A stretch of 64,000 nucleotides of DNA from Candidatus Amesbacteria bacterium GW2011_GWB1_47_19 (GTDB lineage Bacteria; Patescibacteriota; Microgenomatia; CAZETR01; Amesbacteraceae). The stretch lies in contig LCNZ01000006.1 of the NCBI GenBank assembly GCA_001002325.1, positions 110,492 through 174,491 of the forward strand, given 5' to 3'. A program made the translations under genes and the position numbers. This document shows positions 29,814-30,780 of the stretch, one piece after another; positions within the stretch are counted from its first letter, which is position 1, and each line of letters starts with the position of its first letter. The notes under the pieces are model-generated. The model searched no databases. It was not told the origin of the DNA and was given only the letters and a program-made list of their open reading frames with translations.

Positions 29814-30416
29814 ATGACAATAAAAGAACAATTACATAACGACCCAGAAATTCTAGACGACATCGACCTAGTTCGTTGGATTGCTGAAAATTTGCCGATA
29901 CGATTTATAGGTGATGAGGGACTAAAGCAGAAATGCACAGTGTTTAGCGAAGATGAGTTTGGAAGAGAAGAAATGATGGAACTAAGCGAGGTTCTTATTG
30001 ATACTCTTAAGAAATATCGAGCAAAAGCTGGTATGGGAAGAGGTCTAGCGGCCAATCAAATAGGTATTCCCAGACGAATGATTGCTGTTTGGTTAGGTGA
30101 TGAACCGGAAGTATTTGTTAACCCAGAAATTGATAGTACAGAAGGCAAGGGAAGTTATTGGGAATCTTGTATATCAGCAGGAACTTTACTAATCGGGGAA
30201 GTAATTCGTCCATGGAAAGGAAGGTTTTCATATCGTGATCTAAGTGGTGGAGTACACACAATCGAAGCAGACGAAAAACAAACAAGGCTTTTTCTCCATG
30301 AGATTGATCACTTGGATGGACATAATTGTTTGGAAGCATATACACCGGGTACTACAAAATTTGTCCGAGGAGGGAAAGAAGAAATTTTTAGTCACTCGTT
30401 CACCAGAACGAAATAA
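29814..30416 (+). CDS. def: Peptide deformylase with an N-terminal extension
   Basis: All three PDF motifs are present: GRGLAANQIG (motif I), WESCIS (EGCLS-type, motif II) and HEIDHLDG (HExxH, motif III). It has a TATAAT box and RBS upstream. Motif I sits about 30 aa later than in housekeeping PDFs. Confidence 0.85.
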   Translation: MTIKEQLHNDPEILDDIDLVRWIAENLPIRFIGDEGLKQKCTVFSEDEFGREEMMELSEVLIDTLKKYRAKAGMGRGLAANQIGIPRRMIAVWLGDEPEVFVNPEIDSTEGKGSYWESCISAGTLLIGEVIRPWKGRFSYRDLSGGVHTIEADEKQTRLFLHEIDHLDGHNCLEAYTPGTTKFVRGGKEEIFSHSFTRTK

Positions 30417-30438
30417 AATTCTCTAAAAACCAAACGAT

Positions 30439-30780
30439 ATGAAAAAAGCAGAATTAGAACAAGTAAAAGAATTTAAGAACAGCGATTCATGTGTTGCGTT
30501 AGAGTACCCATTGGACGATAAGGATATAAATGCCGCTGTTATTAAGTTAGACGGTCGTTATCCTGAAAGAGGTAGAGCAGTTAATACCGATTGTAAAGAA
30601 ATGGGTTATGTTATCGAGGGATCTGGAAAATTAGTTATTGAAGATAAAACAGTTGAACTAAAAAAAGGCGATGTAGTTTTGATTGAGGCTGGAGAAAAAT
30701 ATTACTTGGAAGGAAACCTGATAATGTTCGTGCCATGTACGCCAGCATGGACTCCAGAACAGCATAAGCTCGTCCCATAA
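30439..30780 (+). CDS. Cupin-domain protein
   Basis: 113 aa with a conserved cupin-2 barrel signature (GDVVLIEAGEKYYLEGN). Confidence 0.65.
   Translation: MKKAELEQVKEFKNSDSCVALEYPLDDKDINAAVIKLDGRYPERGRAVNTDCKEMGYVIEGSGKLVIEDKTVELKKGDVVLIEAGEKYYLEGNLIMFVPCTPAWTPEQHKLVP

Follow-up and report, generated by a model that had tools for sequence, protein, structure and literature searches.

Why does a peptide deformylase (PDF) gene lie between a serine recombinase and a cupin gene in the genome of Candidatus Amesbacteria, a groundwater member of the Candidate Phyla Radiation (CPR)? The DNA that we analysed, called the window below, is a stretch of 64 kb (64,000 nucleotides). The first-pass annotation of this DNA had described PDF and cupin as cargo of a mobile element. 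The alternative is a core gene that merely lies beside such an element. We find the first description upheld. The two genes lie inside the inverted repeats of an element, the PDF cassette is found next to three different right-hand flanks, sister elements hold unrelated cargo in the same slot, and the PDF belongs to a rare clade that is not linked to fmt in the contexts examined. PDF and cupin are the cargo module of an element with a large serine recombinase (LSR) that is inserted in tRNA-Gln(CTG), and the PDF is probably an accessory copy. The coordinates of all features are given in Table 1.

Table 1. Features of the element and its immediate surroundings, in window positions.
Feature	Position	Strand	Details
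tRNA-Gln(CTG), integration target	27682..27755	+	ARAGORN; Rfam tRNA 60.4 bits
Large serine recombinase ORF, 507 aa	27723..29246	-	Pfam Resolvase 6e-22, Recombinase 4e-15, Zn_ribbon_recom 8e-11
Beta arm, left inverted repeat	27746..27875	+	130 nt, 98%; blastn 127 nt, 99.2%
Integrative element, ~3.18 kb	27749-30926		Inserted in 3' end of tRNA-Gln; host Candidatus Amesbacteria (CPR)
attL core CCAGC	27749..27753	+	Junction comparison
Recombinase module, 1,468 nt, invertible	27876..29343	.	Opposite orientation in L004 and L189
Backbone box AAACGCAAAAATT, recombinase-side copy	29314..29326	-	Followed by TTAAAGAACTTTT towards recombinase start
Central site X, 217 nt	29344..29560	+	beta' 29344-29473 and alpha' 29466-29560
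Backbone box AAACGCAAAAATT, cargo-side copy	29612..29624	+	Followed by TTAAAGAACTTTT
Conserved stem-loop upstream of PDF	29664..29733	+	MFE -32.7 kcal/mol, z=-4.6
TGTATAAT, candidate extended -10-like element	29795-29802	+	Read from sequence; conserved in L009 and L029
Putative Shine-Dalgarno AAGGTG	29804-29809	+	Before ATG 29814; conserved in L009 and L029
Peptide deformylase, 200 aa, long CPR form	29814..30416	+	Pfam PF01327
Cupin, 113 aa	30439..30780	+	Pfam Cupin_2, E=8e-9
Alpha arm, right inverted repeat	30832..30926	+	95 nt, 99%
Right flank, outside element	30927..31214	+	95-aa fragment of a 2H/CPDase-type phosphoesterase, C-terminal third only

From left to right the locus consists of tRNA, core, beta arm, recombinase (on the minus strand), box, central site (beta'-core'-alpha'), box, hairpin, PDF, cupin, alpha arm, core and flank. 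A comparison of the junction sequences shows that the 3' end of the tRNA (CCAGCCA) is supplied by the element from position 27749 on. CCAGC is found again in direct orientation at 30922-30926, where the element ends on the right (30926), and in inverted orientation inside 29466-29473. Position 27748 is a C in attL, the tRNA type, and a G in the central and right copies. Hence the exchange is placed to the right of 27748. The recombinase would excise and integrate the element by exchange in this CCAGC(CA) core.

Two pairs of inverted repeats, each 98-99% identical, organize the element. The 130-nt pair surrounds the LSR and the 95-nt pair surrounds the 1.27 kb cargo module of PDF and cupin. The beta arm contains a dyad, GCGCTTTCCGCG...CGCAGAAAGCGC, and also codes for the last ~43 codons of the recombinase ORF, whose tail passes on through the arm into the tRNA. 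The end of the alpha arm, ...GAAGTTCGACATTTTTCGTAAACCGCCAGC, resembles the T-arm and the 3' part of the acceptor of a tRNA. Beyond the right end, the phosphoesterase fragment matches positions 130-198 of the 199 positions of the Pfam CPDase profile.

Joining the right end (30832-30926) to the left end (27746-27875) would give a junction whose reverse complement is the central site. This site is an inverted full copy of an attP-like junction. Thus the element falls into two modules, one for the recombinase and one for the cargo, and each has ~100-nt inverted repeats around it. The same construction is present in four further elements (L009, L180, L181 and L185). A 13-mer backbone box, AAACGCAAAAATT, flanks the central site in exactly two inverted copies in the window and in L009, L180, L181/L182 and L185; L183 has three copies and L184 has one. 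Expression of the cargo may start from this backbone control region, which is duplicated on both sides of the central site.

The recombinase itself is an LSR with all three Pfam domains above threshold. Together with the 130-nt and 95-nt repeats, these domains confirm the serine-recombinase element proposed earlier. The N-terminal Ser motif (...AYCRKSTDE..., with YCRKSTDE at residues 7-14) can be read in the translation. The best NCBIfam matches are XisF, CcrB and CcrA, all far under cut-off. There are at least 7,967 homologues at E<=1e-30, and among the matches listed those with names are Microgenomates or Patescibacteria. The gene is broken in two copies of the element: three ORFs take its place in L009, and in L001 it is called with 415 aa.

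In natural populations, the recombinase module is found both ways round. The orientation of the window is also found in L003, L188 and L190, and the opposite one in L004 (JGI 3300025117) and L189 (ENA ERZ27254746). The order in L189 is tRNA flank, arm and 5' side of the recombinase; the order in L004 is 3' end of the recombinase, arm, alpha' and PDF. In both contigs an arm SNP stays with the outer flank. Inversion by exchange at the att core was rejected, because the SNP puts the crossover into the inner ~75 nt of the arm. Since this interval lies off the att core, the inversion could be plain homologous recombination and not recombinase catalysis.

Could the repeats and the apparent inversion be assembly artefacts, and the PDF just a neighbour of a degenerate prophage integrase? 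Short-read assemblers struggle with inverted repeats of ~100-130 nt, and many contigs do end at the arms (L004, L006, L007, L191). However, the layout is recovered from independent projects and assemblers (NCBI 2015 genomes, MEGAHIT k141, JGI, Logan), and it is also present in elements with 67-90% identical recombinases, each with its own arm sequences. The two inverted contigs come from different samples, with complementary junctions and the same arm SNP. L189 is a k=141 contig, and this k is longer than the 127-130-nt arm. As for a prophage, phage genes are absent and no relatives of the LSR were found in IMG/VR. We consider the artefact explanation very improbable.

The PDF cassette also turns up in other surroundings. 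The right-hand flank differs between all three cassettes compared (window, L009 and L029). L009, from a Patescibacteria MAG, combines a PDF of 86% amino acid identity with an IU-nucleoside hydrolase between repeats of 117/118 nt. It has an IS3-like transposase on its left and unrelated genes on its right, and no tRNA was detected at this locus. L029 carries PDF and cupin, has arms of the L009 type and is followed by the third kind of right flank.

The recombinase and its target are also found with other genes. Besides the window element, five distinct sister elements (6 loci) abut the 3' end of tRNA-Gln in other Microgenomates, and their recombinases are 67-90% identical. The full layout with two repeat pairs is present in four of the five, and all carry other cargo. 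In L180 the cargo comprises a SnoaL-like protein and an HNH nuclease, with two more genes. L181/L182 carry a protein with a weak RHH domain, another that resembles 3-keto-disaccharide hydrolases, and two other ORFs. The cargo of L183 is an S26 peptidase with two genes that are uncharacterised, and that of L185 a PHP-AAA_21 ATPase with a 387-aa gene. Only the repeat pair flanking the recombinase was found in L184, and no derivation of the L183 arrangement from simple inversions was found. The core shared at the junctions is short in each case where we list it: CCAGC in the window, CAGCCA in L180 and AGCCAG in L181. Related Microgenomates elements share a layout and differ in cargo. Cargo modules would be exchanged between elements at the arms.

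Our literature search found no paper on serine-recombinase elements of CPR/Patescibacteria, or on this repeat layout. Known LSR elements (phage integrases such as phiC31 and Bxb1, XisF, SCCmec CcrAB/CcrC and TnpX of Tn4451) have the same combination of Resolvase, Recombinase and zinc ribbon. They too insert site-specifically, with a short shared core, and have an attP-like site beside the recombinase gene. In contrast to the named families, the elements described here span ~3-6 kb, carry one to four cargo genes and contain the internal inverted full attP-like copy. To our knowledge, such a copy, with ~100-nt inverted repeats for each module, is not a feature of named LSR systems.

Two other systems resemble the layout. 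In Hin-type segments (Salmonella hin/hix; Gin, Cin, Pin) a serine recombinase gene also lies within inverted repeats and is found in both orientations. Those invertases are small (~190 aa, with a C-terminal HTH) and use 26-bp sites and a Fis-dependent enhancer, whereas here a 507-aa LSR lies between ~130-nt arms. If the element were excised, the circle would consist of two long inverted repeats and two unique regions, one of them coding for the recombinase, and it would flip between isomers like the yeast 2-micron plasmid (FLP/FRT). However, FLP is a tyrosine recombinase acting on 599-bp repeats in a eukaryotic replicon, while no replication function is visible here, and the available contigs show no circular junction.

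What kind of protein does the cargo encode? The PDF matches the peptide deformylase family PF01327 (EC 3.5.1.88) over residues 28-176 (E=8e-28, 97.4 bits, cut-off 22.8). All three PDF motifs reported earlier, GRGLAANQ (residues 75-82), ESCIS (117-121) and HEIDH (162-166), can be read in the translation and align with motifs I-III of E. coli Def, whose reference sequence we checked against PDB 1bs4. The metal ligands C119, H162 and H166, the catalytic E163 and the Gln of motif I, Q82, correspond to C90, H132, H136, E133 and Q50 of E. coli. Across an alignment of 34 sequences, which includes four ordinary PDFs, G75, G77, Q82, E117, C119, S121, H162, E163 and H166 are invariant; an alignment of the family alone adds C41 and C172. 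The AF2 model (pLDDT 92.5) has the PDF fold. The best PDB matches that Foldseek listed for it are all PDFs (E about 1e-12, TM 0.63-0.71 on query length), and the best PDB match of the family profile is 3UWA (E=5e-26). The gene is under strong purifying selection, with dN/dS between 0.05 and 0.14.

The protein also departs from the ordinary type. As noted earlier, motif I comes about 30 residues late, at residue 75 compared to 43 in E. coli Def. The shift is made up of ~24 extra N-terminal residues and a 5-residue insertion ahead of motif I, and the model shows the extension as a helix (residues ~11-26). Motif II reads E-S-C-I-S-A, with Ser at the usual Gly. This position is Ser in 27, Ala in 2 and Leu in 2 of the 31 family members sampled, and Gly in ordinary and viral PDFs. 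Motif II is generally EGCLS followed by a hydrophobic residue, and its Gly is present in >95% of single-copy PDFs (PMC12690207). Tyr115/Trp116 are specific to the family. The extension had been taken for a feature of this copy; judging from the alignments, however, the whole family shares both the extension and the change of Gly to Ser in motif II, and these mark a small, CPR-restricted PDF clade.

The def equivalog models of NCBI do not recognise this clade. The PDF scores 65.6 bits against the cut-off of 103.95 of NCBIfam TIGR00079, and it also stays under the cut-offs of the other four NCBIfam PDF models (one subfamily, three equivalogs). Because of these failed equivalog cut-offs and the Ser in motif II, activity on nascent peptides is not guaranteed. 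Most likely, the protein nevertheless works as an N-formyl-methionyl peptide deformylase, in the role of an accessory copy.

We also looked at residues associated with actinonin. The equivalent of E. coli Arg97 is Ile127 (I, V, M or L in the family), so the Arg97-to-Tyr signature of actinonin tolerance, known from the Def2 group, is absent. Ile127 is neither the Arg linked to sensitivity nor the Tyr linked to resistance in Def2VCH. Among ordinary PDFs this position differs widely and does not discriminate. Hence there is no specific resistance signature. The lack of Arg is compatible with weaker actinonin contacts. A remodelled S1' pocket, with Arg at 44 and 128 where E. coli differs, was considered and dropped, because ordinary and viral PDFs commonly have the same residues.

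The PDF family forms a distinct clade in a neighbour-joining (NJ) tree, and the element-borne copies are a tight cluster at its tip. It is small: 33 of 25,036 PDF cluster representatives match the family profile at E<=1e-30, and about 7 GTDB species genomes have a member. The distant members have unrelated surroundings, and in the contexts examined no fmt was called close to them. Their neighbours are of a detoxification type (MarR, TetR, GNAT, glyoxalase-fold, NUDIX, RibD_C), and those of the window PDF are the recombinase and the cupin. Inverted repeats are no general trait of the family, as they were found neither at six distant loci nor around the close homologues L030-L032.

The PDF is not phage-related, and a phage origin was rejected. 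An IMG/VR scan with the PDF family gives only distant ordinary PDFs, mostly partial and with at most 40% identity, and viral PDFs fall outside the family in the NJ tree. Cyanophage and vibriophage PDFs (for example the S-SSM7 PDF, PDB 3UWA) are likewise borne on mobile DNA. Unlike the protein described here, they are short (154 aa for 3UWA) and have no N-terminal extension.

Is the PDF an extra copy, or does the host depend on it? If the element had captured the gene, or if the chromosomal copy had been lost later, the PDF could be the only working deformylase of the host, and dependence would have fixed the element. Several observations would fit. The known PDF was the sole match when the window was searched in six frames with an HMM, and no second PDF or fmt was found within the window and all fetched CPR flanks. 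The element is present in each contig from this population that extends to the site, and an empty tRNA-Gln site was not seen in the available contigs. The strong purifying selection on the PDF points in the same direction. CPR also have a broader group of long-form PDFs, for example Uhrbacteria L017 beside a truB-like gene (by sequence inspection only), and in some CPR the main Def may be a long form.

However, the narrow family is rare, as its roughly 7 GTDB species and 33 cluster representatives show, and its positions are non-syntenic, without a called fmt in the vicinity. Sister elements at the same tRNA have other cargo, so their hosts must get Def elsewhere. Furthermore, at least one CPR has an ordinary housekeeping def linked to fmt: in Saccharibacteria the arrangement is priA-def-fmt, and this def passes TIGR00079 with 128.5 bits. 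Linkage of def and fmt is found in only 58% of species (PMC12690207). A database search from the nearest ordinary PDF (P0097) gave named matches only in WOR-3, Hydrothermia and Gemmatimonadales, none named CPR, and so does not bear on Amesbacteria. Taken together, we judge it quite unlikely that the PDF is the sole deformylase of its host. The accessory status that we prefer rests on distribution and context, not on gene count, def and fmt having been looked for in the window and the fetched flanks.

Alternatively, the protein may keep the PDF fold and act on something else. It would then be a metallohydrolase and not a co-translational deformylase, and its substrate would have shifted to a small molecule with a formyl or acyl group or to a formyl-peptide of non-ribosomal origin. 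The Gly-to-Ser change in motif II, Tyr115/Trp116, the invariant Cys41/Cys172 and the scores under all def equivalog cut-offs would agree with such a shift, and so would the detoxification-type neighbours of distant members. The second gene of the L009 cassette is a nucleoside hydrolase, and in one relative (P0016) a weak match to a nucleoside 2-deoxyribosyltransferase-like domain (26.4 bits, cut-off 28.8) is either fused to the protein or next to it. But these nucleoside links amount to one locus and one match below threshold. No residue required for PDF chemistry is missing, and the model can be superposed on many true PDFs. The motifs tolerate substitutions, for example A48S is active (PMC12690207), and Arg at 44 and 128, odd compared to E. 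coli, is common in ordinary and viral PDFs. A shifted substrate is thus unlikely, and we continue with the reading of the PDF as an accessory deformylase.

What could an extra deformylase be good for? Accessory PDFs on mobile DNA, which the first-pass annotation knew from cyanophages and called unusual on a small serine-recombinase element, are by now no rarity. They were published in 2025 from plasmids and integron cassettes: Def2 of Vibrio cholerae and PsDef of Pseudoxanthomonas have a role in actinonin tolerance (Lamberioux et al. 2025, PMC12690207). Second PDFs that are acquired or linked to biosynthetic gene clusters (BGCs), and inhibitor tolerance, are also described in PMC12157366. Like the plasmid and integron copies, the gene described here is a probable extra PDF with intact catalytic residues and a passenger of a site-specific recombination element, and tolerance to natural PDF inhibitors is a plausible benefit in both cases. 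The differences lie in the vehicle, a tRNA-integrating LSR mini-element with no IntI or attC; in the CPR host; and in the protein, a long form with an N-terminal helix, ESC for EGC and Ile127 without the Arg97-to-Tyr change. In addition, the PDF is seen here without a canonical def in the window.

By analogy with PDFs borne on plasmids, integrons and BGCs, the cargo would most likely help its host to tolerate natural PDF inhibitors or, in a broader sense, buffer its capacity for deformylation. The cargo PDF is a further instance of the mobile accessory PDFs already published (PMC12690207). The element, with its central inverted attP-like copy and flipping recombinase module, is less ordinary.

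A more far-reaching picture can be drawn, which we put forward tentatively and hold to be possible rather than probable. The elements may be an undescribed class in CPR, 3-6-kb 'two-compartment' LSR carriers that target tRNA-Gln. The inverted attP duplicate would let the recombinase flip its own gene, as a switch of expression or directionality, and swap cargo at the arms, and the long-form PDF would be a circulating cassette selected by PDF inhibitors in groundwater. If this were true, the elements would perform a natural recombinase-mediated cassette exchange, like an integron built on a serine integrase.

With this locus, mobile accessory PDFs, a pool recognised only recently, reach into the Candidate Phyla Radiation and gain a new kind of vehicle. 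The locus also defines a compact, strongly conserved clade of long-form PDFs outside the NCBI def equivalog models. Divergent mobile PDFs matter for resistance surveys, because antibiotics target PDF and competition among microbes is shaped by its natural inhibitors. CPR have tiny genomes and few described mobile elements; an abundant family of mini-elements whose cargo can be exchanged would give genes a concrete way to flow in them. The serine integrases of this family have a well-defined natural attP and attB (tRNA-Gln) and could interest genome engineering.

The second cargo gene, the cupin, is without the usual metal-binding His ligands. Its counterpart in L029 is 97% identical (dN/dS 0.12), and in L009 the nucleoside hydrolase takes its slot.

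The codon usage of the PDF is AT-rich and unlike that of the backbone, as the first-pass annotation had observed: its GC3 is 0.27 and that of the cupin 0.29, compared to 0.47-0.58 for the two backbone genes on the left. However, the tract of low GC runs on to about 43 kb. Hence low GC is not unique to the element.

Between the central site and the PDF lie several candidate expression signals. The stretch 29795..29809 may act as a promoter and ribosome-binding site, as we infer from its letters. No promoter is claimed, because promoter and terminator scans gave counts not above those of shuffled sequence. The TGnTATAAT is only 11 nt upstream of the PDF start codon, so the hairpin further upstream, a possible regulatory leader in the first-pass annotation, may lie upstream of the promoter.

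The hairpin itself, first placed at 29671-29739, is real, with its boundaries now refined (Table 1). An Rfam scan for a hairpin or leader gave no family, the tRNA being the sole match. None of 200 shuffles folds as well as the stem-loop, and nhmmer finds it only with this PDF cassette. Across the three diverged cassettes (window, L009 and L029), the stem-loop is conserved with seven compensatory pairs.

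The layout of the element that carries the deformylase, rather than its cargo, is the most rewarding part of the finding. Within it, an inverted attP copy lies internally, two modules are each bounded by repeats, the recombinase module flips itself and the cargo varies. A literature search for this layout found no description.

The element sits at a tRNA-Gln gene and contains two pairs of inverted repeats (see table). Because the pairs meet at the centre, the central site equals the reverse complement of the right-end/left-end junction, and is thus an inverted full copy of the attP-like junction. 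The right arm, ending in ...GAAGTTCGACATTTTTCGTAAACCGCCAGC, is similar to the T-arm and acceptor 3' part of the tRNA, and the element provides the CCA end of tRNA-Gln. The 13-mer AAACGCAAAAATT, followed by TTAAAGAACTTTT, occurs in exactly two inverted copies, one on each side of the central site. This holds for the window, for a Patescibacteria MAG (L009) and for the sister elements L180, L181/L182 and L185; L183 has three copies and L184 one. The 13-mer may mark a backbone control region that was duplicated towards the cargo.

Features of the element and its surroundings (window positions), and gene content of sister elements
Feature	Position	Strand	Description
tRNA-Gln(CTG)	27682-27755		integration target
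Inverted repeat pair	27746-27875 / 29344-29473		130 nt, 98%; encloses large serine recombinase
Inverted repeat pair	29466-29560 / 30832-30926		95 nt, 99%; encloses PDF and cupin
Core CCAGC	27749-27753 and 30922-30926		at both junctions
Central site	29344-29560		217 nt; right end joined to left end, reverse complement
Terminator-like hairpins with T-runs	27908-27943 and 29293-29323	+	counts not above chance
Stem-loop	29664-29733		-32.7 kcal/mol, z=-4.6
Conserved TGTATAAT	29795-29802		immediately ahead of Shine-Dalgarno sequence
Peptide deformylase (PDF) ORF	29814-30416	+	200 aa; Pfam Pep_deformylase PF01327, 97.4 bits, E=8e-28
Cupin ORF	30439-30780	+	113 aa; Cupin_2 protein
Right-flank ORF	30927-31214		starts at first base past element
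Second large serine recombinase remnant	32555-33010	-	151 aa, zinc-ribbon part only; 1.6 kb past element
Direct-repeat pair elsewhere	9585-9619 / 10306-10341		36 nt, 97%
Direct-repeat pair elsewhere	48500-48542 / 49729-49771		43 nt, 91%
L180 cargo			SnoaL-like protein, HNH nuclease, two further genes
L181/L182 cargo			weak RHH-domain protein, 3-keto-disaccharide-hydrolase-like protein, two further ORFs
L183 cargo			S26 peptidase, two uncharacterised genes
L185 cargo			PHP-AAA_21 ATPase, 387-aa gene
L184			repeat pair around recombinase the only one found

The recombinase module occurs in both orientations. In the metagenome contig L189 (ENA sample ERZ27254746; a k=141 contig, longer than the arm) the 5' side of the recombinase abuts the tRNA-side arm, and in L004 (JGI 3300025117) its 3' end abuts the central arm. 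The module is the other way round in the window and in three further contigs (L003, L188 and L190). A sole polymorphism separates the two arms: the tRNA-side arm has C, the central one T. In both inverted contigs it stays with the outer flank. This places the crossover within the arm's inner ~75 nt, a stretch with a GC-rich dyad, and excludes the att core. Two explanations fit the inversion: the arms recombined homologously, or there is a second point of site-specific crossover. The cargo module was not seen inverted in any of the contigs compared.

The first-pass annotation read the PDF and the cupin as cargo of a mobile element, and gave a core gene merely adjacent to it as the alternative. 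Context and phylogeny both speak against a core neighbour: the PDF is enclosed by the element's repeats and travels with the element to different sites, sister elements carry other genes in the same slot, and the gene belongs to a rare clade without fmt linkage in the contexts examined. A second def is absent from the window and from all fetched flanks.

The same construction is found at a different location in L009, with 117- and 118-nt repeats, a PDF 86% identical to that of the window and, instead of the cupin, an inosine-uridine nucleoside hydrolase after the PDF (L009:3975-4898, Pfam 8e-30). The metagenome contig L029 has PDF and cupin together with arms of the L009 type, and its right flank is of a third kind. 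In other Microgenomates contigs tRNA-Gln is occupied by elements with unrelated cargo whose recombinases are 67-90% identical, and the full two-repeat layout is present in four of five distinct sister elements. The element family is large and extends across Microgenomates. Close PDF homologues also occur outside such elements (loci L030-L032). Distant family members lie in ordinary chromosomal contexts, where no repeats, recombinase, cupin or fmt were found.

Individual copies vary further. Between window 29814-30780 and L029:338-1304, synonymous divergence is 0.40 for the PDF and 0.13 for the adjoining cupin; together with the L009-type arms in L029, this makes the cassette look mosaic. In L008:1-1700, a contig from the L189 sample that has neither central site nor recombinase, the left joint of the PDF cassette falls exactly at the end of the central copy of the right arm (window 29566), which points to a rearrangement, or to an exchange, at this arm; to its left lie a different arm-like sequence and two unrelated genes (195 and 191 aa). 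In L183 (2180-2460, 5690-6010, 7370-7580), 81 nt of the recombinase 3' end recur beyond the cargo beside a right-type arm, direct rather than inverted. This element keeps a window-type full site at its centre, and its recombinase 3' arm and tRNA-Gln sequence differ; no derivation from simple inversions was found. In L180:5403-6000 about 600 nt separate the central arm from the recombinase start, compared with about 100 nt in other elements. Some copies are decaying: in L001 a frameshift leaves a 415-aa recombinase call (8186-9433) and ~39 nt are deleted from the right arm (11028-11074), and in L009 (1295-2804) the recombinase is split into three ORFs.

The PDF itself reads as described at first pass. 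Its three motifs are all present (GRGLAANQ, residues 75-82; ESCIS, 117-121; HEIDH, 162-166). In a profile alignment with E. coli Def, the sequence of which was confirmed from PDB 1bs4, the metal ligands C90, H132 and H136 correspond to C119, H162 and H166, E133 to E163 and Q50 to Q82, and motif I starts 32 residues later than in E. coli. The AT-rich codon usage holds as well, with GC3 of 0.27 (PDF) and 0.29 (cupin) vs 0.47-0.58 in the two genes on the left; the low-GC tract extends beyond both genes to ~43 kb. Four NCBI protein records contain the identical protein; those whose names are shown are Candidatus Amesbacteria GW2011 MAGs (Microgenomates, CPR). Numerous contigs from groundwater metagenomes encode it as well.

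The PDF belongs to a family of ~95 database clusters, nearly all 190-202 aa long and 32-98% identical over their full length. All named clusters are CPR (Amesbacteria, Woykebacteria, Saccharibacteria). The N-terminal extension, marked by a near-invariant Trp22 and by LP-IRFFGD, is shared by the whole family, as are a 5-residue insertion ahead of motif I, a change from Gly to Ser in motif II and two additional invariant cysteines, C41 and C172. Against 1.84 billion cluster representatives, the family profile yields 25,036 matches at E<=1e-3 and 33 at 1e-30; HMMER E-values stand at ~1e-25 at the last family member and then drop to 1e-10 for ordinary PDFs. An AlphaFold model has the PDF fold (pLDDT 92.5) and predicts a helix, residues 11-26, for the extension. 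The best PDB matches listed by Foldseek for this model are all PDFs.

Mobile PDFs are known from phages, and the top PDB match of the family profile is 3UWA, the PDF of cyanophage S-SSM7. Even the best IMG/VR matches do not exceed 40% identity, and most of them are partial. The suggested phylogeny against phage PDFs, a neighbour-joining tree without bootstrap, places the family as monophyletic, apart from viral and ordinary PDFs. The clade is not phage-like. Pairwise dN/dS of close copies is 0.05-0.14; hence the gene is maintained by selection. A broader set of PDFs (~185-205 aa) has in common Tyr at the site of E. coli residue 86 and, in motif II, a residue other than Gly; it includes an Uhrbacteria PDF (L017:9959-10516) adjoining a gene that is truB-like by sequence inspection only. 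CPR long-form PDFs may be commoner than the narrow family studied.

Roughly half of bacterial genomes have additional PDFs, which are frequently carried by plasmids and integron cassettes and can reduce actinonin susceptibility via Arg97Tyr (PMC12690207). Acquired second PDFs are selected by a natural PDF inhibitor (PMC12157366). The cargo PDF adds a new lineage, and a new vehicle, to a phenomenon already known. By analogy, it might serve in inhibitor tolerance. The window PDF has Ile at the position equivalent to Arg97 and lacks the Tyr signature; it is therefore without the Arg contact, at a position that varies widely among other PDFs. Alternatively, the enzyme may act on a shifted substrate. 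Consistent with this are the Ser in motif II, scores below every NCBIfam def equivalog cut-off (TIGR00079: 65.6 vs 103.95; a Saccharibacteria def in a priA-def-fmt arrangement passes at 128.5) and a loose association with nucleoside enzymes. Besides the hydrolase in L009, one relative (P0016, L186:1812-2780) carries a fusion to a region with weak similarity to nucleoside 2-deoxyribosyltransferases (26.4 bits against a cut-off of 28.8). The clade may be linked to nucleoside metabolism, or the association may be chance.

The hairpin noted upstream of the PDF is a real conserved structure: seven pairs are preserved despite two-sided changes among the window, L009 and L029. It is confined to this PDF cassette and matches no Rfam family. 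The hairpin might be an mRNA leader, but if TGTATAAT is the promoter, then it is not co-transcribed with the PDF; matches in a consensus promoter scan were not above chance.

Outside the element, the right-flank ORF corresponds to just the final third of a 2H/CPDase phosphoesterase. Hence the right flank is a gene fragment and not an intact original attB flank. The second recombinase remnant lies within a ~12-kb low-GC tract (31000-43000; GC 0.38 vs ~0.50 in the left backbone) that encodes GH10, two EamA transporters, an alpha/beta hydrolase, GH130 and glycosyltransferases. Integration at the tRNA-Gln locus seems to have happened repeatedly, with older insertions now decayed. Of the two terminator-like hairpins, the first lies just past the left arm, where it could block read-through from tRNA-Gln, and the second just before the central site. 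A flip of the module would move both to the opposite strand.
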